A stretch of DNA of 64,000 nt, taken from Dehalococcoidia bacterium. GTDB lineage: Bacteria > Chloroflexota > Dehalococcoidia > Dehalococcoidales > BS750m-G39. Position numbers and translations under genes: made by a program. The notes below the pieces were generated by a model. The model was not told the origin of the DNA. It made no database searches and was given only the letters and a program-made list of their open reading frames with translations. Of the stretch, positions 6,514 through 49,225 are shown in pieces. The first letter of the stretch is position 1. The number at the start of each line of letters is the position of its first letter. Location of the stretch: NCBI GenBank assembly GCA_050123275.1, contig JASFHK010000007.1:659-64658 (forward strand), written 5' to 3'.

Positions 6514-7875
6514 CTATTTTAGCAGACCCGCCATGGCGCTGACCGCCCTTTCCGGCAAGGGAAAGACGGGCACGCCGGCGCTCTCCAGAGCCTCTATCTC
6601 GGCATAGGCCGCGCCTTTGGGGGAGTCCAGGCAAACCACGATTGGCTTTTGGGCGTCACGGGCGACATCGGCCACCGCCCGCATCAGCTCCATGTTGCTG
6701 TTGTAGAAGACGGCGGCGGCGATAACGGCATCGACGCCCTCGTCGGCCAGAGCCGTGAGGAGCATCTGACGACAAGCATTAAAGTCGTCCGAGGTCCAGG
6801 CCACGTCCACCGGGTTTTCCACCGAGTTCAGCGCCGACGAAAGCTTTTTTAGCTTTCTTTGCGTCGTCGGCGAGAATTCGGCTAACTGCAAGCCGAGGTC
6901 GGCGCACTTATCGGCCATGATGACCGCCGGGCCCGCCTGCACCGAGAAAACGGCCACCCGGTTGCCCTTCGCCAGCGGCTGGAAAGACAGCGCCTTGGCC
7001 TTGTCCACCATCTCGCCGATACTGTCCACGGCAATCAGGCCCGCCTGCTTAAAGGCGGCGCGGTAGTAGTCGTAGTTACCGGCGATAGCGCCGGTGTGGG
7101 CAAAAGCGCTCTTTTGCGTCGCTTCCGCCCGCCCCGCCTTATAGACGACGACGGGCTTGCGTCTGGCGACTTTACGGGCGGCATCGAGGAACTTACGCGG
7201 CTCGTCCAGCCCCTCGATGTATAGGGCGATAACTTTAGTGTCCCTGTCCTGCCCGAAATAGCTCACCACCTCGTCGAAGTCCAGGTTGCAACGGTTGCCC
7301 AACCCCACCGCCGTGCTGATGCCCACGTTGGCGTTGGTCAGGGCGTGCGCCGCGTAGATGGTGGCGCCGCCGCTCTGCGCCGCCAGCGCCACGTTGCCCG
7401 GCTTACACAGGGAAAGCGTGTACTGGAAAGAGGCGTTGAGACTGATTTTAGGATTGACGAAGCCCAGTGTGTTGGGCCCGATGAGCTTCAGACCGCCTTT
7501 GTCGGCGACGTCTTTGATTTGAGATTGCAGGCGGGCGCCGATTCGGGTGCCCACCTCTTTGAAACCGCCGCTGATGAGGATAACCCCTTTCACTTTTTTG
7601 GCAATGCACTCCTCGACGGCGGACAGCGCCGCATCGGCGGGAATGACCACCATGGCCAGGTTCACCTCGCCGGGAATGGCGCTCAGCGAGGAGTAGGCTT
7701 TCAATCCGAAAAGCTGCGCCAGCCCCGGGTTGACCGGATAGACTTTGCCCGCATATCCCGCCTCCAGCAGGTTGCCCACGCACATATAGCCTATCTTTTC
7801 CGGGTTGGCCGAGGCGCCGACGACAGCCACGCTGCGCGGGTTGAAGATAGGCTCCAGCTGCCTTACCGAACTCAT
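6514..7875 (-). CDS. acyl-CoA synthetase (NDP-forming) alpha-type, CoA-binding protein
   Basis: IFNPRSVAVVGAS, IGPNTLG, AQSGG, GLGN, AHTGAIAG phospho-His, NPVD; no ATP-grasp domain. Confidence 0.88.
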   Translation of the reverse strand: MSSVRQLEPIFNPRSVAVVGASANPEKIGYMCVGNLLEAGYAGKVYPVNPGLAQLFGLKAYSSLSAIPGEVNLAMVVIPADAALSAVEECIAKKVKGVILISGGFKEVGTRIGARLQSQIKDVADKGGLKLIGPNTLGFVNPKISLNASFQYTLSLCKPGNVALAAQSGGATIYAAHALTNANVGISTAVGLGNRCNLDFDEVVSYFGQDRDTKVIALYIEGLDEPRKFLDAARKVARRKPVVVYKAGRAEATQKSAFAHTGAIAGNYDYYRAAFKQAGLIAVDSIGEMVDKAKALSFQPLAKGNRVAVFSVQAGPAVIMADKCADLGLQLAEFSPTTQRKLKKLSSALNSVENPVDVAWTSDDFNACRQMLLTALADEGVDAVIAAAVFYNSNMELMRAVADVARDAQKPIVVCLDSPKGAAYAEIEALESAGVPVFPLPERAVSAMAGLLK

Positions 7876-42040: not shown

Positions 42041-44017
42041 ATGAAGAAATATATAAGTGTTATTTTAGCCCTGCTACTCGTAGCCACGTTAAGCCTCGTG
42101 GGCTGCAACGATAAGGAGACACCGACGGTGAGCCTGGAGACGCCGGCCAACGGCAGTTCGGTCACCTCGCTGACCCCCATCCTCTCCTGGGACTACGAGT
42201 ACTCTAACGCCAGCTTCCGTCTGCAACTGGCCAGCGACGGCAGCTTCCAGAACCTGGTCGTCGACCAATCGAACATCAGCAGCCCCAGCTACAACGTAGC
42301 CAGCGGTAAGCTGAGTGAAGGCCAGACCTATTACTGGCGGGTAAACGCCACCAAGGACGGCCAGGTATCGGCATGGTCATCGGCCTGGTCCTTCCAGACG
42401 CCCGGAGCGGCGGCCGAGGTGGGTACTATCGTCGTCCAGGCCACTCTGGACGGCTCGCCCTGGACGGGTAACGTTAGCTACAGCCTCAGCGGCGCCGAAA
42501 GCTACTCGGGCACCTCGGTAAACCAGACCATCAGCAACGCCGCCGTAGGCAGCTACACGCTGGGCTATAACTCCGGAGGGCCGGCTGCCGCCGCCCTGTC
42601 CGACATTTCGCCCAGCGCCAGCCAGACACTATCCGCCGGCGGCACCGTAACCTTCACCCTCAACTTCACCACTTCGTCCGTCAGCGGGATTCAGGTCCAG
42701 GCCACGCTGGACGGCGCCACCTGGACGGGCAACGTCAAATACACCATAACCGGCCCTCAGGCCGAGTCGGGCACCTACGTAAACGAGACTTTCAGCAACC
42801 TGCCCGCCGGCAACTACACCCTGGGCTATAACTCCGGCGGCCCCAGCGGGGCGACACTGGGCAGCATTTCACCGAACCCGACCCAGACCGTAACCACGGG
42901 TGCCACCACCACCTACACCCTTAACTTCCACTCGCAAAACACCAGCCAGATTAAGGTCCAGGCCACGCTCAACGGCGCTCCCTGGTCGGGCGGTGTCGTC
43001 TATACCATACACGGGGCGTTACAGGATTCCCACAACATAGCGCCCTACACCTTCACCAACCTTCCCGTGGGCACCTACAGCCTGGTCTATAAGTACGGCG
43101 GCCCCTCGGGCGCCAGCCTGATGAGCATTACCCCGCAACCGACCCAGACCACGGCGGCCAACCATACCACCACCTTCACCCTTAACTTCGCCACGGGCAC
43201 TTCGAACACGGTGAAAATCCAGGCCACGCTGGACGGACAGCCCTGGTCGGGCAACGTCAACTACTGCCTGAGCGGGCCTTACTCCGATTGCGACAGCACG
43301 GTGCCGCTGAACCTGACCAACCTGCCCGACGGCACCTACTCGCTCACCTATCGCTCGGGCGGCCCTTCGGGAGCCAGCTTCACCGGTATTTCCCCGTCCT
43401 CGAGCCAGACGGTAAGCGGCGGCGGTATGATAACCTTTACTCTTATCTTCCACTCCGCGGCGTCGGGCACGATATCGGTTAACGCCATGCTCGACGGCGC
43501 TCCCTGGGAAACCGCTATCGGTTCGGGCACCATTAATTACAGCATCAGCGGCCCCATTTCGGACGCCAGCACCAAGATGCCCGATACCTTTACCAACCTG
43601 CCCGGCGGAACCTACACCCTTACCTATAACTCCGGCGGGCCTATCGGGGCGACGCTAACGGCTATCTCGCCGAACCCGACACAAACCCTGCCCGCCGGCG
43701 GTAGCATAAGCTACACGCTATACTTCAGCTCGCAACCCACGGGCACCGTCACCGTCAACGCCACCGCCAACGGCGCTCCCTGGAGCGGCGCGGTCAGCTT
43801 TACCCTGTCCGGGCCTTACATGGATTCACACGGCTCCGTGCCCTATACCTTCGATGGCTGCCCGGCGGGGAGCTACACGCTCACCTACCGTTCCGGCGGC
43901 CCCGACGACATGACCCTCTACAGCATCGACGTGTCGGCGACACAGCAGTTAGACGCCGGAGGTAACATCACCTTCACCCTTGTCTTTGTAGGTGGAGGCG
44001 GCGGCGTTCTGGAATAA
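42041..44017 (+). CDS. surface lipoprotein: FN3-like domain plus six ~88-aa beta-rich repeats
   Basis: lipobox LVGC; TYYWRV; six repeats I.V.ATL.G.PW.G...Y.L.Y.SGGP.GA.L..ISP...QT...TFTL.F. Confidence 0.75.
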   Translation: MKKYISVILALLLVATLSLVGCNDKETPTVSLETPANGSSVTSLTPILSWDYEYSNASFRLQLASDGSFQNLVVDQSNISSPSYNVASGKLSEGQTYYWRVNATKDGQVSAWSSAWSFQTPGAAAEVGTIVVQATLDGSPWTGNVSYSLSGAESYSGTSVNQTISNAAVGSYTLGYNSGGPAAAALSDISPSASQTLSAGGTVTFTLNFTTSSVSGIQVQATLDGATWTGNVKYTITGPQAESGTYVNETFSNLPAGNYTLGYNSGGPSGATLGSISPNPTQTVTTGATTTYTLNFHSQNTSQIKVQATLNGAPWSGGVVYTIHGALQDSHNIAPYTFTNLPVGTYSLVYKYGGPSGASLMSITPQPTQTTAANHTTTFTLNFATGTSNTVKIQATLDGQPWSGNVNYCLSGPYSDCDSTVPLNLTNLPDGTYSLTYRSGGPSGASFTGISPSSSQTVSGGGMITFTLIFHSAASGTISVNAMLDGAPWETAIGSGTINYSISGPISDASTKMPDTFTNLPGGTYTLTYNSGGPIGATLTAISPNPTQTLPAGGSISYTLYFSSQPTGTVTVNATANGAPWSGAVSFTLSGPYMDSHGSVPYTFDGCPAGSYTLTYRSGGPDDMTLYSIDVSATQQLDAGGNITFTLVFVGGGGGVLE

Positions 44018-44042
44018 GCCGCGCGATATACGAGAATAACGG

Positions 44043-44075
44043 AGAAGCCCTCTCTTTCGAGAGGGCTTCTTTTTT
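44043..44075 (+). terminator. intrinsic terminator
   Basis: AGAAGCCCTCTC-TTTC-GAGAGGGCTTCT-TTTTT. Confidence 0.88.
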
Positions 44076-44192
44076 CCCGCTTAACTGAACAAGACCCTTG
44101 ATAGTACAAAGCGATGCAACCTTAAACTCGTCTTGGATTTCATCAAATCCGAAACTTTACCTAGAGTTTAAGCTTATTGCGCAATCTTAATA

Positions 44193-45152
44193 CTAAATAG
44201 CTTTACCCCAAATGATAGCCAGTGACTCCAATAGTTCTACTGGTAAAGCATCTGCCCAAAGGTGCTTTAAACGGAAAGGATCCTTATCAAGTCGCTCAAA
44301 AACTAATAAGGTCTCGGGTTGAAAAAGCAAGGGATTGCATCGTTCATCTTGTGCATAATCGCGAAAAATATCTTCTAACTTTCCTTGATTATGCTCTACA
44401 AAGTCATCAAGTAATGAACCAAAGCCTTCTAGTTCCTCAACTGAAAACAATGGAAGTAATTTCGGAATAATGGCCAGAGACAGCTTTCGATCAAATGTCC
44501 TTACCGTGAATTGCAAAAAGTTTTTCTCTACTTGGTCAAGAATACCTGCCTCTTGGAAGCCTGGCAATTCCAAAATGGTACTCCTAGCCTGTGCTATTTC
44601 TTGGTCGAATATCTCAACAAGGGACATCAGACGATAGATTGCTCGCTTGATTTCTACTGGCGGTGTTTGTAACGGTTTGTACATAAGCTCATGGGATACA
44701 TCAGCCCATAAGTTTTGAGCCCGTGTATGCAGTTGAATCTCGCAAATCAGTCCATGGAATCTCTCGGCATGCGATTCTTTGTTTTGTAAGGTAACTCTAA
44801 AGTGAATACCGAGGTATCCTAATTGGTCATAATCGAGCCCTACAATCTTATTTTCATACTTAAGCACATTGAACAAACCCCGAATGATTTTTTCCACATT
44901 GTCAAGTTGGTCGTAATAGGTCAAAACAACCCTGACACCCGCTTTATCGAAGATCTCATCATAGGGATTTGTGTAGCGCTTGCGCAGTGCTTTCTTAAGC
45001 AAGCTAGCAACTTCCTTTGCACGCGCACTCACGATACACGCGATTCCTCGCCGTCGTGTCTCAGCCTCCAAAATGCTTTTAACATACTCTGAAAAATCTT
45101 TATACAGCCCTCGCTCAGCTATCCACCTTTCACGCAGCGCTTCCAGTTCCAT
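44193..45152 (-). CDS. stand-alone RelA/SpoT synthetase-domain protein with C-terminal extension
   Basis: RAKEVASLLKK, DKAGVRV, GYLGIH, EIQLHT..QNLWADVSH; ATG overlaps upstream TGA (TGATG). Confidence 0.85.
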   Translation of the reverse strand: MELEALRERWIAERGLYKDFSEYVKSILEAETRRRGIACIVSARAKEVASLLKKALRKRYTNPYDEIFDKAGVRVVLTYYDQLDNVEKIIRGLFNVLKYENKIVGLDYDQLGYLGIHFRVTLQNKESHAERFHGLICEIQLHTRAQNLWADVSHELMYKPLQTPPVEIKRAIYRLMSLVEIFDQEIAQARSTILELPGFQEAGILDQVEKNFLQFTVRTFDRKLSLAIIPKLLPLFSVEELEGFGSLLDDFVEHNQGKLEDIFRDYAQDERCNPLLFQPETLLVFERLDKDPFRLKHLWADALPVELLESLAIIWGKAI

Positions 45153-46201
45153 CAACGCTTTCCCTGCAATCGCTTCACTCTATCTTCTATCTCTAAATGA
45201 GTCCGTCCATCATCTAGGTCTTTCATCTTAACATGCTCTTTAAAGGTTTCTGGGTTCCCTAACACCGCAAGGCCGCTCTGAAATTCGAGCTGTATTCGCT
45301 TTAGATGCGTCCCGATAAGTGATATATCCTTTTCAAATGGTTGTGGTAAAACCGAGGCATCACTTAAATAGTCTATATATTTCTGCCGATCTTCCACGTC
45401 TAAGTGGGCACGCGCGAATGATCTCGGATCGAATGTTCCCGCCTGACTTCCTAGCTCCGCTAGCAGAGCGATTTCGTAACGTGCCTTTGCTTCCGGCTCA
45501 GCGATTTCCTCATGGATGAAGCCCTCGGTAGCATGGAACAACCGTTTTGTCGTGACTTCAGGTGCCTCCCGAAGGTTGCAACCTAAAAACTTTCTCAAAA
45601 AGAAATCCGCCACTTCTGTAGTTGGATAGTATCCCCGTTGGTTATCCGATACAGCTCCCTCGATAGACTCCAGGGTAACACCTGTTTGCACAAACAATCC
45701 GACTTTAAACACCCTCGTCTTTTCAGTAAGCATAAGGTCACGAATATGCTCTAGGCGAAAAGTCGATTTCCCTTGCAACTGCTCTTGTTGCAGACGCACT
45801 CCGGCTTCTCTTTCTAATTTTATAATAGCGATGGCCCTTTGTTGAACAACCTCCGCTTGTACCACGCAAAGTAACCCGGCTGGATTTACACCTGTCTGCA
45901 TTCTGTAAAGATGGGATGCCACATCTCTAGACATTGATACGAAATCTGCCGTCTGTATGCCAAGATTATCAAGAACTAATGGCGGCACAGGAGATAGCGA
46001 ATCGGGGTCAAAAATTACATCGAACGCAGCTGTATCAAGTGTACCGATAATTTTCTCCCTAAAGTAATTCCTCAGTTCTGGAGTGAGAGGGCTCTCAATT
46101 TCACTGAGTACAGGGGGTTCCCCACCACCACCCACTGGTCTCGGCGGAACGTCGTGAACTATCACCTTTTCTACATGTAACCTACCTAAATCAATCCTCA
46201 T
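45152..46201 (-). CDS. nucleoid-associated protein, YejK/NdpA (NA37)-like
   Basis: VIVHDV, SRDVASHLY..Q, IAIIKLE, VADFFLRKFLGC, TKRLF pattern; 349 aa; RBS AGGAGG. Confidence 0.65.
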   Translation of the reverse strand: MRIDLGRLHVEKVIVHDVPPRPVGGGGEPPVLSEIESPLTPELRNYFREKIIGTLDTAAFDVIFDPDSLSPVPPLVLDNLGIQTADFVSMSRDVASHLYRMQTGVNPAGLLCVVQAEVVQQRAIAIIKLEREAGVRLQQEQLQGKSTFRLEHIRDLMLTEKTRVFKVGLFVQTGVTLESIEGAVSDNQRGYYPTTEVADFFLRKFLGCNLREAPEVTTKRLFHATEGFIHEEIAEPEAKARYEIALLAELGSQAGTFDPRSFARAHLDVEDRQKYIDYLSDASVLPQPFEKDISLIGTHLKRIQLEFQSGLAVLGNPETFKEHVKMKDLDDGRTHLEIEDRVKRLQGKR

Positions 46202-46363
46202 GTAGACCCCTCCTGCGATAGAATAGGTGTGACTTAAGTCTCTCTGTACTTCGGCTTTTCTTTTTCGATTATCCCAGCTTCTCCAGTTATACTTTACTGA
46301 CTCCTTCCAAACGAGCTAAAAACCTAAATCTGTAAAGAACTCACCTAACCTCAGACTCTTACC

Positions 46364-46400
46364 CCGATTATACACCCGATTTCTGTTATGTCAACAGTCC
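46364..46400 (-). promoter_or_regulatory. shared promoter module, copy 3
   Basis: GGACTG-TTGACA-N16-TATAAT; 31/37 nt identical to 35694-35730. Confidence 0.75.
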
Positions 46401-46439
46401 CCTTTCACACCCCGCCTATAGCCACCTGTCTCACCCCCA

Positions 46440-46576
46440 CTTTCCATAACGGACGCCAAAAACAATTCCCCTTTTCCCCAAAATCCGTGCCTGCTTACCA
46501 TAACGGCGCCCCGAAACAAATACCCCTTTTCTCCAAAACCCCGTTTACTTACCATAACTCTAAAAACAAATCCCCT
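46440..46576. repeat. three degenerate tandem repeats, 54-bp period
   Basis: CCATAAC at 46444, 46498 and 46552, each followed by AAACAA.T.CCC. Confidence 0.75.
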
Positions 46577-46657
46577 GCCCGTCCGCACCCGATTTGTTTC
46601 CCCCGATTTTTCTTGCCCGTATTTTTGTCGCCCCCACTTGTGCTAAAATAAACCCAT

Positions 46658-49225
46658 ATGATTCCCATCAAGCTTTCCATGCGCAACTTCATGCCCTACC
46701 GCGACCACGTGCCCCCGCTATACTTCAACGGCATCCACACCGCCTGCATCTCCGGCGATAACGGCAACGGCAAGTCGGCGCTCATCGACGCCATGACCTG
46801 GGCGCTCTGGGGCAAGGCGCGCTCGAAGAGCGACGACGACCTCATCCACCAGGGGCAGGACGAGATGGAGGTGGAGTTCGATTTCAAGGTGGGCGAGCAG
46901 GGCTACCGCATCATCCGCAAGCACTCCCGCCCCAAGCGCGGTGGCAAGACGGGCAAGAGCCTGCTGGAGTTCCAGGTGGCCTCCGACGACGGCTACAAGC
47001 CCGTCAGCGCCGAGAGCATCAGCCTTACCCAGCAGAAGATTATCGACACCCTCCACATGGACTACGCCACCTTCGTCAACAGCGCCTTCCTGCGGCAGGG
47101 GCACGCCGACGAGTTCACCAACCAGCCGCCGGCCAAGCGCAAGGACGTGCTGGGCAACATATTGGGGCTGGAGTTCTACGACGAGCTGGAGCAGCGCGCC
47201 AAAGAACTGGCGCGGGAACAGGCGGCGGAGGGAGAGCAGCTGGAAAGCGTCCTTGAGGAAATCAACCGCGAGCTGGCCCGGAAAGCGGAATACGAAGCCG
47301 AGCTGGCGCAGGCGCAAACGGCGCTGGAGGCAGCGGAGAAGGTCCTGAAAGAGCACGAAACCAGGCTGAACCGGCTCAAGAAGGACAAAGAAGCCCTGGA
47401 AAGCAAGAAACAGCAGCTGGCCCAGCTTGAGGAGCACGCCGCCGTCACCAGAAGCGACCTGGAGGGACGCCGTCAGGAAGTCGCCCGCTACCAGGAGCGC
47501 ATCAAAGAACACGAAGCGCTCATCGCCCGGCGCGCGGAGATCGAGGAAGGCTACGCTCAATTCGCCGACGCCCGCCGGCAGACCGAGGCGCTCAACCAGA
47601 AGCTGGGGCTGCTGCTCAAGCTCCAGAACCAGAAAAACCAGCTCGAGAAAGAAATCCAGGCGGCGCAGTCGGAGCTGCTCACCCGGCACAAGCTGGCCGA
47701 GAGCAAAATCGCCGACCTGGAAGCTAAAGCCGCCGAACTGCCCCGGCTCAAAGACGAGCTGAAGCAGGCGCAGGCGGAACTGCAAAAACTGGCCGAAGCA
47801 GAAGCGGCGCTGAAGGCGAAACAGCAGTCCGCCCGGGAAATGCGCACCGCTATCAACTACCTGGAATCGGAGATAAACGGCCTCAAAAAAGAGATTGACG
47901 GTATCGCCAAGAACATCGACACCCTCTCCCAGGCCGAAGCCAAATGCCCGGTCTGCGGCACCGAACTTAACGAAGACCACTTAAAAAAGATTCAGGGCAA
48001 CTACGCCGCCGAACGGGACGAAAAAACCAAGGCGATTGAGACAAAACAGGTCGAGTTATCTGCCAAAAAGCAAGAGCTAGCAACACTGGAAAACGAGATA
48101 GCCTCGCTGGAGACAGGGCTGAATAAGGATAAAGCCGCCGCCCAGAGCGGGGTCAGCCTGCTCAACAAGGACATCAGCGAAGCCCAGGCCGTCGCCAGCC
48201 AGCTCGATGAAGTCAGGGAAAGCCTTAAAGAAATCGAGCAAAGCCTGGCCGCCAAGGACTTCGCCGCCGCCAAAAAGCCGGCCCTGGAGCAAGTCGAGGC
48301 AGAGCTGGCCAAGCTCGATTACGACTCGCTAAAGCACGAAGCCCTGCAAAAGCGCCTTAAAGAACTGGAGCAGTACGAAGCCCCCCAGCGCCAGCTCGAA
48401 GAAGCCGACCGGCTCATCGAACAGGAAAAAGAGGCGCTGGCTAAAGCCGAAGCCGCCGGCCGGGAGCTGGAACAGCGGCTGGAAGCCGACACCAGCAAAG
48501 GGCAGGACCTGAAAAAAGCGCTGGAAAGCCTACCCCGGGTAACCGCCGATTTAACCCAAGCGGAAAGCGAGCACCAGCCGCTTTCGGCGGAGCAAAAGCG
48601 GGCGCAGCAGCTGGTCTGGAGCGTAAAAGCCAGGCTGGAGCGCTGCGACGAGCTGGAAACCCGCAAAAAGGAAAAGGAAAAGCAGCTGGGGCAAGCGTCC
48701 AAAGAGGCCAAAATCTACAAAGACCTGGCGCAGGCCTTCGGCAAAAAGGGCATACAGGCGTTAATCATCGAGATGGCGTTGCCCGAAATCGAGGCCGAAG
48801 CCAACCGCCTGCTGGCGAAAATGACCGACGGCCGCATGCACGTCAAGATGGAAACGCAACGGCAGACCAAGAAGGGCGAGCCGGTGGAAACGCTGGACAT
48901 CAAAATCAGCGACGAGCTGGGCACGCGCAACTACGAGATGTTCAGCGGCGGCGAGGCCTTCCGCATCGACTTTGCCGTGCGCATCGCCCTCTCCAAGCTG
49001 TTGGCCCGCCGGGCCGGGGCGCCGTTGCCCACCCTGATTATCGACGAGGGCTTCGGCACGCAGGACAGCAGCGGCATCGAAAAGCTGAAAGAGGCGATAA
49101 ACTCAATACAGGACGACTTCAAAAAGATACTGGTCATAACCCACATGGAGGATTTGAGAGACGCCTTCCCCACGCGCATCAACGTGGTCAAAACGGCGCA
49201 GGGTTCGACGATGGAGGTTAGCTAG
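46658..49225 (+). CDS. sbcC: SbcC/Rad50-like SMC ATPase
   Basis: GDNGNGKS, LRQG, coiled coils, CPVC zinc hook, FSGGE, IIDEGFG, VITH. Confidence 0.88.
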   Translation: MIPIKLSMRNFMPYRDHVPPLYFNGIHTACISGDNGNGKSALIDAMTWALWGKARSKSDDDLIHQGQDEMEVEFDFKVGEQGYRIIRKHSRPKRGGKTGKSLLEFQVASDDGYKPVSAESISLTQQKIIDTLHMDYATFVNSAFLRQGHADEFTNQPPAKRKDVLGNILGLEFYDELEQRAKELAREQAAEGEQLESVLEEINRELARKAEYEAELAQAQTALEAAEKVLKEHETRLNRLKKDKEALESKKQQLAQLEEHAAVTRSDLEGRRQEVARYQERIKEHEALIARRAEIEEGYAQFADARRQTEALNQKLGLLLKLQNQKNQLEKEIQAAQSELLTRHKLAESKIADLEAKAAELPRLKDELKQAQAELQKLAEAEAALKAKQQSAREMRTAINYLESEINGLKKEIDGIAKNIDTLSQAEAKCPVCGTELNEDHLKKIQGNYAAERDEKTKAIETKQVELSAKKQELATLENEIASLETGLNKDKAAAQSGVSLLNKDISEAQAVASQLDEVRESLKEIEQSLAAKDFAAAKKPALEQVEAELAKLDYDSLKHEALQKRLKELEQYEAPQRQLEEADRLIEQEKEALAKAEAAGRELEQRLEADTSKGQDLKKALESLPRVTADLTQAESEHQPLSAEQKRAQQLVWSVKARLERCDELETRKKEKEKQLGQASKEAKIYKDLAQAFGKKGIQALIIEMALPEIEAEANRLLAKMTDGRMHVKMETQRQTKKGEPVETLDIKISDELGTRNYEMFSGGEAFRIDFAVRIALSKLLARRAGAPLPTLIIDEGFGTQDSSGIEKLKEAINSIQDDFKKILVITHMEDLRDAFPTRINVVKTAQGSTMEVS

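Follow-up and report, generated by a model that had tools for sequence, protein, structure and literature searches.

We place the probability at roughly 70% that a two-gene module in a Dehalococcoidia genome, encoding a YejK-like nucleoid-associated protein and a stand-alone RelA/SpoT-type synthetase, is a type I PANGU-like abortive-infection system, that is, a divergent member of already described systems and not a new category. The module lies in the window, the 64,000-nucleotide stretch of contig JASFHK010000007.1 that was analyzed. An earlier note on this DNA had proposed an anti-phage or toxin–antitoxin function and stated that no named system with this pairing was known. The latter statement is out of date, as type I PANGU, composed of the nucleoid protein Pag1A and the synthetase Pag1B/GRel, is named in the available text of a preprint that has not been peer reviewed (Li et al., bioRxiv 10.64898/2026.04.06.716658, April 2026). 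In the main-text literature searched, the pairing is described only there; the main text of Jimmy et al. 2020 (PMC7229694), in the portions available, mentions neither GRel nor a nucleoid-protein neighbor. As to function, anti-phage defense is the best reading of the module, and the toxin–antitoxin half of the proposal is disfavored by analogy with PANGU as the preprint's available text describes it.

Organization and insertion site of the module

Both genes lie on the minus strand, the NA37/YejK-like gene first and the RelA_SpoT synthetase gene second. The Pag1A-like nucleoid-protein gene (45152..46201; 349 aa, YejK/NdpA family) would encode the sensor and activator, and the Pag1B-like small alarmone synthetase gene (44193..45152; 319 aa plus stop) the effector. 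As the earlier note had described, the two co-oriented frames are joined by a TGATG stop/start overlap at 45150..45154 of the minus strand (plus-strand 45150-45155 reads CATCAA, the minus strand TTGATG), where the A of the nucleoid-protein gene's TGA stop is the first letter of the synthetase ATG; this arrangement suggests translational coupling of the two genes. The synthetase open reading frame, 44193..45155, encodes 320 aa if translation starts at TTG and 319 aa if it starts at the ATG at 45152.

Expression signals surround the operon. A Shine–Dalgarno sequence, AGGAGG (46209..46214, minus strand), precedes the nucleoid-protein ATG at 46201 by 7 nt, and a sigma-70-type consensus promoter of the operon (46367..46394, minus strand; TTGACA-16-TATAAT, 12/12) falls within the inserted segment. 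Because promoter-like sites over the whole region are no more numerous than in shuffled sequences (3 against 3.5 ± 2.1), only this perfect match and its position are considered notable. Between the promoter and sbcC, still inside the insertion, lies a tandem repeat with a 54-bp unit (46439..46558; 2.2 copies, 77% matches), of which a genome-wide search found no further copy. On the host side, a bidirectional terminator-like hairpin with a T run (44043..44075; 12-pair stem at 44043-44070) forms the left boundary of the insertion. Terminator, promoter, and repeats had all been listed in the earlier note, as had the AT-richness of the block, and each was recovered: GC is 0.40–0.50 in windows 44000 to 46400 against 0.61–0.65 over both 42200-43999 and 46600-47799 (0.40–0.47 for the module against 0.60–0.64 for the flanks), placing the module 15–20 points under host GC. 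In the metatranscriptomic run X2, whose library may hold DNA, two 151-nt contigs map to 44642-44934 within the synthetase gene, a weak hint of module expression; in run X3, whose library may likewise hold DNA, contigs cover the flanks only.

The whole module sits in a 2,555-base insertion of low GC (44076..46630). A co-occurring contig from run X1 represents an empty site: position 44075 is followed there by 15 other letters and then by 46631. The same 15 letters occur in the 104-base lipoprotein–sbcC spacer of a same-genus genome, which is also an empty site and is preceded by the same hairpin as that at 44043..44075. Run X1 contigs diverge in the 54-bp repeat region, with loose ends at 46539-46574. 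Judging from its composition and these empty sites, the module is a horizontally acquired, mobile, AT-rich element, and the insertion is shown by the contig comparison to be, in all appearance, recent. No convincing direct repeat indicative of a target-site duplication was found at the insert edges; a 12-nt near-repeat, pairing TCACCCCCACTT at 46431 with TCGCCCCCACTT at 46628, was all that the comparison gave, and no integrase or transposase genes occur within the 2.5-kb insert. An empty site within one sample, at a variable spot upstream of sbcC, makes the locus a clear-cut natural case of gain or loss.

The flanks in the window are housekeeping in character, encoding an ABC transporter, surface proteins, SbcC, an HD protein, and UvrA; a defense island in the window was rejected on account of these neighbors. 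PADLOC matches of SbcC to LmuB or PbeC were also rejected, as they are most simply read as SMC/Rad50 similarity because NCBIfam assigns the protein to sbcC with an E-value of 2.6e-89.

Domain architecture of the two proteins

The nucleoid protein matches the Pfam family NA37 (PF04245) with an E-value of 8.3e-11 (42.3 bits against a cut-off of 24.6), and E. coli YejK (NdpA; PDB 9be2) is the only significant Foldseek match to its model (E 3.7e-10). A sequence search of solved structures returned no NA37-family match for it. The two proteins have the Pfam family and fold in common at 14% identity in the structural alignment; however, E. coli YejK is abundant and encoded by a stand-alone chromosomal gene, whereas the window's gene lies on a mobile islet and appears coupled in translation to that of an effector. 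It is the sole NA37 match in the genome, which is 87% complete, so its product may have a housekeeping role.

The synthetase matches RelA_SpoT (PF04607; E 8.8e-15, 55.4 bits against a cut-off of 27), and a Pfam scan found no hydrolase (HD) domain in it; both domains proposed in the earlier note stand after profile and structure searches. Its AlphaFold2 model (mean pLDDT 91.2) comprises a toxSYNTH-like synthetase domain (residues 1-165; 44658..45152, minus strand) carrying the catalytic residues and the G-loop Tyr113, a long linker helix (residues 166-195; 44568..44657, minus strand), and an acidic all-helical C-terminal domain (residues 196-319; 44196..44567, minus strand; helical over 200-315 in the model), predicted to correspond to the DMK domain on which the nucleoid protein docks. 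The translation and its alignment with B. subtilis SAS1 display the motifs R44-x-K46-xxx-S50-xxx-K54, D69-xx-G72-x-R74, G112-Y113-xxx-H117, E138-I-Q140, and Q146-xx-W149-A-xxx-H154, with K46, D69, G72, R74, Y113, H117, E138, and Q140 invariant in 29 sequences. These motifs, the missing hydrolase domain, the C-terminal extension, and a His in place of the usual Arg had been read correctly in the earlier note. The last of these, H142, aligns with an Arg in SAS1, and since the position varies within the family, the change is probably not diagnostic: in the 240 of 261 sequences in which the motif was found, the residue after E-x-Q-x is His in 139, Arg in 36, Leu in 32, Gln in 21, and another residue in 12.

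The C-terminal domain, which contains LLFQPETLLVFERL, has a pI of 4.62 and a net charge of −9. It is net negative in 29/29 relatives and, in the larger family set, in 232/233, and the synthetase half ranges across the family from neutral to acidic (net −9 to +2).

A fold search with the synthetase model gave B. subtilis SAS1 as the best Foldseek match (5ded; E 2.1e-8, TM 0.75 on the target), and phmmer returned an SAS1-type match with an E-value of 3.2e-13. SAS1 (YjbM/RelQ) and SAS2/RelP (PDB 5ded, 5dec, 6fgk, 6ewz) are the nearest solved relatives of residues 27-196; these housekeeping enzymes have the catalytic motifs in common with the window synthetase but possess neither its acidic C-terminal domain of 124 residues nor a linked nucleoid-protein gene. 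Assignment to SAS1/RelQ itself, a single-domain protein of about 200 aa, was rejected because of this extra domain and because the score against NCBIfam GTPPhKinYjbM is 53.6 bits, compared with a cut-off of 320.

Among known defense proteins, CapRel(SJ46) (PDB 7ztb), a tRNA pyrophosphokinase, is comparable to the window synthetase: it is a small alarmone synthetase acting against phage, its C-terminal domain is regulatory, and the catalytic fold is shared (Foldseek E 5.6e-6). According to the available text of bioRxiv 10.64898/2026.04.06.716658, CapRel is a fused toxin–antitoxin that is auto-inhibited in cis, triggered by a phage capsid protein, and active on tRNA. In contrast to this single gene, the window has a separate partner gene, and the C-terminal domain of its synthetase fails to superpose on that of CapRel (rmsd 19 Å over 367 columns). 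PADLOC (2023) holds no model for the nucleoid-protein/synthetase pair, and its sole match for the module, PDC-S33, covers the synthetase domain alone (E 5.8e-13). PDC-S33 is a single-gene candidate defense system with no nucleoid-protein partner; membership was rejected, as only profile positions 47-175 of 349 were matched.

Conservation and distribution of the gene pair

Directly upstream of the synthetase and on the same strand, a substantial NA37 match is present in 28 of 30 related loci from species-representative genomes, which were collected with a 10-sequence alignment; of the remaining two, one has a 66-residue NA37 match only and the other is cut by a contig end. This association is far beyond chance, and the conserved pairing that the earlier note proposed to look for is borne out. 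Identities of the two proteins to the window pair co-vary (r = 0.91 over 28 loci, whose kin are not independent). Functional coupling of the nucleoid protein to a stand-alone synthetase with a C-terminal extension is supported.

The clade spans at least six phyla, with members in Chloroflexota, Actinomycetota, cyanobacteria, Planctomycetota, Methylomirabilia, and Dormiibacterota, and 1,857 cluster representatives reach E ≤ 1e-30 against the family profile. A search of 40 other genomes from the genus, family, and order to which the window belongs turned up no full-length relative. In 106 open reading frames scanned around related loci, type IIG restriction-modification, HmaC (in 2), DpdF, DarT with DarG, and methyltransferases were identified, along with a phage integrase in 3 and transposases. 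The defense context that the earlier note proposed to look for is seen in the neighbors of related loci and not at the window, with its housekeeping flanks. No phage-borne copies of the clade were found in viral contigs or in a phage collection: 23 pattern matches in viral contigs, obtained with the 10-sequence alignment, include no relative, and none of the 16 records returned by tblastn from the phage collection has at least 80% query coverage.

These data bear on whether the pair could be housekeeping, comprising the cell's own chromosome organizer and an ordinary stress-response synthetase that it controls, neither of them taking part in phage defense. Such a reading would accommodate the genome's only NA37 match, the housekeeping flanks, and a synthetase domain nearest to housekeeping SAS1, but it is highly improbable in view of the missing full-length relatives in the 40 related genomes, the GC deficit relative to the host, the insertion polymorphism with its empty site, and the scatter of the clade over at least six phyla near restriction-modification, DarTG, integrase, and transposase genes.

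Relationship to type I PANGU

In the available text of the preprint (bioRxiv 10.64898/2026.04.06.716658), PANGU systems are delimited by a YejK/NdpA-family protein of at least 300 aa with an effector in the same operon at a gap of less than 40 bp. In Pag1B, as laid out there, a helical linker joins the synthetase domain to an acidic "DNA-mimicking" (DMK) domain at the C terminus, with Y129 as the G-loop tyrosine of PANGU-Ff Pag1B and R258, R306, and H314 as interface residues; the members tested come from F. futtsuensis, P. aeruginosa, and E. coli, and some type I operons carry an extra SLATT gene. The window module has the corresponding features: a two-gene operon with the YejK-like gene first, its product being a 349-aa NA37 protein with a YejK fold; a 4-base overlap; and an effector whose synthetase domain is followed by a helical linker and then by an acidic, helical C-terminal domain, the surface of which is proposed by analogy to mimic DNA. 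The G-loop tyrosine is kept, with Y113 in L-G-Y-L-G-I-H aligned to Y129 of the K. pneumoniae-type family. The computed sizes of the window pair (nucleoid protein 39.2 kDa, synthetase 37.2 kDa) are close to the 40.6 and 37.5 kDa given in the preprint's available text for the P. aeruginosa pair. The window has neither a SLATT gene nor a defense island.

Homology of the window module to the tested PANGU proteins is indirect, running through a K. pneumoniae plasmid operon, assigned to type I by architecture only, that encodes a DUF4231 protein, a nucleoid-associated protein, and a RelA/SpoT protein. With DUF4231 taken as SLATT-related, this layout agrees with the type I operons that carry an extra SLATT gene. 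Over its whole length, the operon's nucleoid protein can be aligned with the window family (hhalign E 2.7e-24, 335 columns). For the synthetase, a gammaproteobacterial profile built from 118 sequences, among them an E. coli cluster with 112 members, was compared with the window family profile of 233 sequences, giving an E-value of 3.3e-40 at full length and 1.5e-10 over 112 columns for the C-terminal domain alone, against 0.1 for the reversed control. A single-sequence hhalign comparison of the C-terminal domain with the K. pneumoniae plasmid protein had given an E-value of 0.32, like that of shuffled controls, a negative overturned by the profile–profile result; the same procedure yielded 0.0024 over 22 columns for a C. 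botulinum plasmid protein and 6.4e-19 for a Streptomyces plasmid protein. The G-loop tyrosine of the gammaproteobacterial, K. pneumoniae-type family is residue 129, the same number as in Pag1B. Across 120 relatives of the K. pneumoniae protein, at most 3/7 of the PANGU residues Y129, R258, R306, H314, R279, E272, and E337 were matched in any one, and the F. futtsuensis protein is on that account not among these relatives. A megablast search of E. coli genomes with the K. pneumoniae operon gave no match, and a sequence search of solved structures gave no entry for the tested PANGU proteins.

The window clade is distant from the gammaproteobacterial family, with 23% identity over the full length and 17% in the C-terminal domain. 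Its C-terminal domain is also far more acidic (median net charge −10 against −2, with 84/118 gammaproteobacterial domains negative), and the two kinds of domain may not work alike. Consequences of this divergence can be envisaged in which nucleoid-protein gating is retained and the chemistry or trigger differs, e.g., (pp)pApp synthesis, tRNA pyrophosphorylation, or a cue besides nuclease-driven genome degradation. We consider this unlikely. The low identity and high acidity would fit it, as would the residue after E-x-Q-x, which is His here, mostly non-Arg in the clade, and Arg in SAS1 and in the K. pneumoniae and C. botulinum plasmid proteins; moreover, other toxic small alarmone synthetases are known that make (pp)pApp or modify tRNA. 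Nevertheless, the solved folds closest to the window synthetase are those of SAS1, SAS2, and RelP, which make (p)ppGpp (E 2e-8 to 2e-7), CapRel ranks only 38th in the Foldseek search, and the neutral-to-acidic synthetase half weakly argues against tRNA chemistry in that it does not suggest a basic tRNA-binding surface. The tRNA pyrophosphorylation product entertained in the earlier note is further disfavored by the (pp)pGpp that the closest characterized system, type I PANGU, makes according to the preprint's available text.

Type I PANGU-like membership would extend that architecture to a large, deeply divergent clade in little-studied phyla. That this clade forms a functionally distinct nucleoid-protein-gated branch, in which the sensor doubles as the cell's nucleoid protein and a free half-domain serves as an activation-buffering decoy, is, as a joint proposition, doubtful. 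Its components are that the hyper-acidic C-terminal domain or the relaxed position after E-x-Q-x could be tied to a product or trigger other than that of the gammaproteobacterial systems, and that the sensor, encoded by the sole NA37 gene of a genome of roughly 1.5 Mb, may also serve the cell as its nucleoid protein. The third component concerns Solirubrobacterales relatives, which have a third gene whose product corresponds to the second half of the C-terminal domain and stands on its own; this free copy could act as a decoy buffering activation, a regulatory layer absent from the available part of the preprint's description.

Proposed mechanism

According to the available text of bioRxiv 10.64898/2026.04.06.716658, Pag1A senses the loss of long host DNA and is an activator freed once phage nucleases degrade host DNA. 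The nucleoid-protein dimer then binds the C-terminal domain in a 2:1 complex and activates the synthetase, which alone is an inactive tetramer; without phage, the synthetase and the pair are both non-toxic, and the nucleoid protein is needed for activity. By analogy, we infer for the window module the binding, the activation step, the product, the trigger, and the protection against phage. In the uninfected cell, the nucleoid protein would occupy long chromosomal DNA, and the synthetase would be an inactive oligomer. Degradation of the chromosome by phage nucleases would release the nucleoid protein, which would bind the acidic C-terminal domain as a 2:1 complex and switch the enzyme on. The activated synthetase would convert ATP and GTP, GDP, or GMP to AMP and (pp)pGpp, and the resulting nucleotide drain would halt transcription and translation, aborting the infection. 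A complex prediction with two nucleoid-protein copies and synthetase residues 196-319 scored 0.00, but its controls did not fold, and it counts neither for nor against binding.

Gating of a stand-alone synthetase by a nucleoid protein, which the earlier note had derived from the nucleotide letters and translations, matches the mechanism in the 2026 preprint's available text; judged by that text, the coupling is supported, and the suggested antitoxin role and sensing of foreign DNA are not supported. A type II-like toxin–antitoxin arrangement, with the synthetase as a constitutive toxin neutralized by the upstream nucleoid-like protein, would be in keeping with an overlapping gene pair on a mobile AT-rich islet whose upstream gene is a putative antitoxin, and with the five small alarmone synthetase subfamilies that are validated toxins with adjacent antitoxins in the available portions of Jimmy et al. 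2020 (PMC7229694). We judge it quite improbable, given the non-toxicity of the synthetase alone and of the pair in PANGU and the requirement for the nucleoid protein there. The partner, moreover, is of a DNA-binding type and not a small labile antitoxin, and no antitoxin family was matched in Pfam, NCBIfam, or PADLOC. A FaRel/PhRel/CapRel toxin–antitoxin pair was rejected, the partner being a 349-aa YejK-fold protein where a known antitoxin would be expected.

For the type I PANGU-like mechanism, the very acidic C-terminal domain and the three-gene half-domain variant can be used to test the generality of the "DNA-mimic docking" model. In a protein atlas search with the C-terminal domain, the best score was 0.79, in a range where shuffled sequences also score; the entries matched, a lead at most, are fragments of putative GTP pyrophosphokinases.

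A probable type I PANGU-like system

[quoted passage not shown] The earlier note knew of no named system with this pairing, which did not hold, as the combination of NAP and synthetase had already been described as PANGU in a preprint (Li et al., bioRxiv 10.64898/2026.04.06.716658, posted 6 April 2026). In the text of that preprint, type I PANGU pairs a YejK-like nucleoid-associated protein (Pag1A) with a small alarmone synthetase of the GRel subfamily (Pag1B), in which a synthetase domain at the N terminus is joined through a helical linker to an acidic C-terminal domain termed "DNA-mimicking". The architecture of the window pair matches this description feature for feature. At least in its main text, Jimmy et al. 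2020 (PMC7229694) mentions neither GRel nor a nucleoid-protein neighbour.

The systems tested by Li et al. (bioRxiv 10.64898/2026.04.06.716658) came from F. futtsuensis, P. aeruginosa and E. coli. In the absence of phage, Pag1A, Pag1B and the pair were all non-toxic. Pag1B alone is reported as an inactive tetramer, and a Pag1A dimer binds its C-terminal domain in a 2:1 complex with a KD of 9.4 nM. This complex converts ATP and GTP, GDP or GMP to AMP and (pp)pGpp, and tRNA was not labelled. Pag1A binds DNA of at least 400 bp and departs from the nucleoid upon infection, the pair becomes toxic with a Pag1A mutant unable to bind DNA, and mutations in denA (EndoII) let T4 escape. The same preprint reports an added SLATT gene in some type I operons and places type I in more than five phyla. 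This mechanism is carried over from non-peer-reviewed work on distant relatives, and for the clade of the window we infer binding, product, trigger and protection. The value of the locus lies in the divergence of its clade, its hosts, a clean insertion polymorphism and a three-gene variant in relatives.

Operon structure and protein models

Gene 1, a 349-aa ORF, occupies 46201..45152 on the minus strand; gene 2, on the same strand, ends at 44193, and its product has 319 aa if translation starts at the ATG at 45152 and 320 aa if it starts at a TTG at 45155. They meet in a minus-strand TTGATG (CATCAA on the plus strand, 45150-45155), where the TGA stop of gene 1 and the ATG of gene 2 have an A in common. 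GC content falls to 0.40-0.50 over 44000-46400 from 0.61-0.65 in both flanks. A hairpin with a T run lies at 44043-44075, AGGAGG stands 7 nt ahead of the gene 1 ATG on the minus strand, and a 54-bp repeat (2.2 copies, 77% matches) spans 46439-46558. The minus-strand promoter-like site TTGACA-16-TATAAT (46394-46367) agrees with the consensus at 12/12 positions; the region holds 3 promoter-like sites versus 3.5 +/- 2.1 in shuffles, and only the perfect match and the position of this one are notable. Pfam recognized NA37 in gene 1 (E 8.3e-11) and RelA_SpoT in gene 2 (E 8.8e-15), and detected no hydrolase domain in gene 2. The earlier sequence observation was confirmed in full: the overlapping ORFs in an AT-rich block, the flanking terminator, consensus promoter and repeats, the stand-alone synthetase, and every synthetase motif that had been listed, including His142 in place of the Arg of SAS1, the housekeeping synthetase of B. 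subtilis.

In the AlphaFold2 model of the synthetase (29 homologues, mean pLDDT 91.2), a predicted alpha/beta synthetase domain is followed by a single long helix spanning residues 166-195 and by a domain made of helices only (200-315). The closest solved structures were the (p)ppGpp-making SAS1, SAS2 and RelP (Foldseek E 2.1e-8, TM 0.75 on target), matches limited to the N-terminal half, whereas CapRel ranked 38th with an rmsd of 19 A. The 29-sequence alignment shows no variation at K46, K54, D69, G72, R74, Y113, G115, H117, E138 and Q140, nor at D269, Q278-P279-E280 and W299 in the C-terminal domain. That domain (residues 196-319) has a pI of 4.62 and a net charge of -9, and is net-negative in all 29 aligned relatives and in 232 of the 233 members of a larger set. 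For the NAP, the predicted model (pLDDT 86.0) significantly resembled a single PDB entry, E. coli YejK (9be2; E 3.7e-10 over 361 columns), with the second-best at E 0.15. No other NA37 match was found in the genome (1.54 Mb in 29 contigs, 87% complete).

Homology to distant plasmid operons

Plasmid operons served as a stand-in for the tested PANGU proteins; homology to these would run indirectly through the K. pneumoniae operon, which we assign to type I by its architecture. A tblastn search of plasmids returned three operons of NAP and synthetase, from K. pneumoniae, C. botulinum and Streptomyces. The K. pneumoniae operon, on a conjugative IncFIB plasmid (L043, NZ_CP092398.1), encodes a DUF4231 protein (confirmed at E 6.2e-9), which we take to belong to the SLATT group, then a nucleoid-associated protein and a RelA/SpoT protein, the last two genes overlapping by 4 bases. 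It adjoins a DEAD/DEAH helicase and an IS110 transposase. The C. botulinum C/D pair lies on a phage-like plasmid (L042, CM003332.1) between a lysis amidase and structural genes. Distant operons of like architecture (L042, L043) are located on mobile elements.

The NAP family aligned end to end with the K. pneumoniae NAP (hhalign probability 99.6%, E 2.7e-24, 335 columns), and the synthetase family matched the single K. pneumoniae synthetase over 289 columns (E 2.2e-18). Because the C-terminal domain alone gave a non-significant E of 0.32 against this single sequence, equal to shuffled controls, the K. pneumoniae synthetase family was collected for profile-profile comparison (960 matches; those with a name were gammaproteobacterial, among them an E. 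coli cluster of 112 members). This yielded E 3.3e-40 over 313 columns for the full-length synthetases, 1.1e-34 for the N-terminal half and 1.5e-10 for the C-terminal domain alone (112 columns, 17% identity), against 0.1 in a reversed-column control. Both synthetase domains are thus homologous to those of the gammaproteobacterial, K. pneumoniae-type family. The G-loop Tyr of that family is residue 129, the number that the preprint text gives for Pag1B (bioRxiv 10.64898/2026.04.06.716658), and this agreement lends circumstantial support to equating the family with GRel. The gammaproteobacterial family differs in that its C-terminal domains are far less acidic (median net charge -2 versus -10 in the clade of the window) and in carrying Arg at a position that is mostly His, Leu or Gln in this clade.

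Conserved pairing and genomic context

Word-indexed searches retrieved 266 full-length synthetase relatives and 170 full-length NAP relatives, many of which lay on contigs of identical length. Against 1.84 billion cluster representatives, the synthetase profile gave 12,938 matches at E <= 1e-3, of which 1,857 reached E <= 1e-30; the weaker matches in these counts include other synthetase families, whereas the top 150 all lay below E 2e-73 and were mostly full length. Thirty related loci were found in species-representative genomes of Chloroflexota, Actinomycetota, Planctomycetota, cyanobacteria, Methylomirabilia and Dormiibacterota. The pairing is conserved: in 28/30 loci the sequence directly upstream on the same strand gives a substantial NA37 match, with 225 or more residues aligned by tblastn. 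One exception (L008) has its upstream region cut by a contig end; in the other, an Actinomycetota MAG (L002), only the last 66 NAP residues are detectable (1882-2079) upstream of an intact synthetase gene, perhaps because the assembly is frameshifted, the gene has decayed or another sensor has taken its place. The remainder of the L002 upstream region contains two long overlapping ORFs with no Pfam match. NAP and synthetase identities to the window pair co-vary (r = 0.91, 28 loci); because these loci are kin and not independent, the correlation points to co-inheritance and is not a statistical test.

Four of the 30 loci, all from Solirubrobacterales, carry a third ORF of 127 aa overlapping the synthetase stop (L011, 6966-7349; L012, L015 and L016, about 7131-7346). 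This ORF encodes the latter half of the C-terminal domain as a protein of its own (matching residues 248-319 by tblastn at E 3e-8 to 5e-9), which might act as a decoy or regulator of NAP binding. The preprint text (bioRxiv 10.64898/2026.04.06.716658) contains no description of such an ORF.

In the window, the neighbours of the module are housekeeping genes. Neighbours elsewhere were scanned at 29 related loci, taking on each side the nearest two ORFs that reach 120 aa (106 ORFs in total). Among the matches listed, PADLOC gave a type IIG restriction-modification enzyme (E 2.5e-284), HmaC (2 ORFs), DpdF, DarG, DarT, PsyrT and several methyltransferases, and Pfam gave phage integrases (3), transposases (3) and a resolvase.

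Insertion upstream of sbcC

The module is a recent insertion. A search of 40 other genomes from its genus (12), family and order, several of them incomplete, turned up no full-length synthetase relative; what remained were weak matches to long RelA/SpoT proteins of 720-775 aa and to a single synthetase of 235 aa. SbcC orthologues were present in 9/12 same-genus genomes, with differing upstream content. In G010 a lipoprotein gene is followed by a 104-base spacer and sbcC, where the window has 2,640 bases (44018-46657). At this spot G004 carries a UvrD/GajB-like helicase and a 118-aa ORF, G002 a 465-aa ORF of unknown kind and G009 about 1.1 kb of other sequence, and three more same-genus contigs end just upstream of sbcC. 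The spot may be an integration or recombination hotspot.

Both forms also appear in one DNA sequencing run (X1), possibly that of the source sample. One contig carries the module (44046-46750, 0 differences, depth 8.68); a second joins 44075 to 46631, skipping 2,555 bases (depth 13.6), and the 15 letters at the joint are those filling the G010 spacer. This second contig is short (165 nt, of which its shorter side makes up just 30) and has 11 differences; it is from a related strain and not isogenic. Flank depths of 20-24 approximate the sum of both forms, depths not being equal to cell shares. Neither an integrase or transposase nor a clear target duplication was detected at the insertion, and a 12-nt near-repeat of the right junction is present (TCACCCCCACTT at 46431, TCGCCCCCACTT at 46628).

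A 14-bp repeat (3.2 copies, within 46439-46633) accompanies the 54-bp repeat; both lie inside the inserted segment, between the module promoter and sbcC, and have no other copies in the genome. Three X1 contigs diverge in this repeat region (46539-46574). The product of the sbcC gene (46658-49225) is an ATPase that resembles SbcC/Rad50 and contains a zinc hook (NCBIfam sbcC E 2.6e-89, under the curated cut-off); sbcD is absent directly upstream of it in the window, and the upstream gene in relatives is likewise not sbcD. On the other side, a 658-aa lipoprotein-like ORF (42041-44017) has several internal Ig-like repeats, giving staggered self-similar tblastn matches to orthologues (46-52% identity) and only weak Ig-like matches in Pfam. 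In a metatranscriptome library from a wetland (X2), two contigs of 151 nt are identical to parts of the synthetase gene (44642-44934), a weak hint of its expression in nature.
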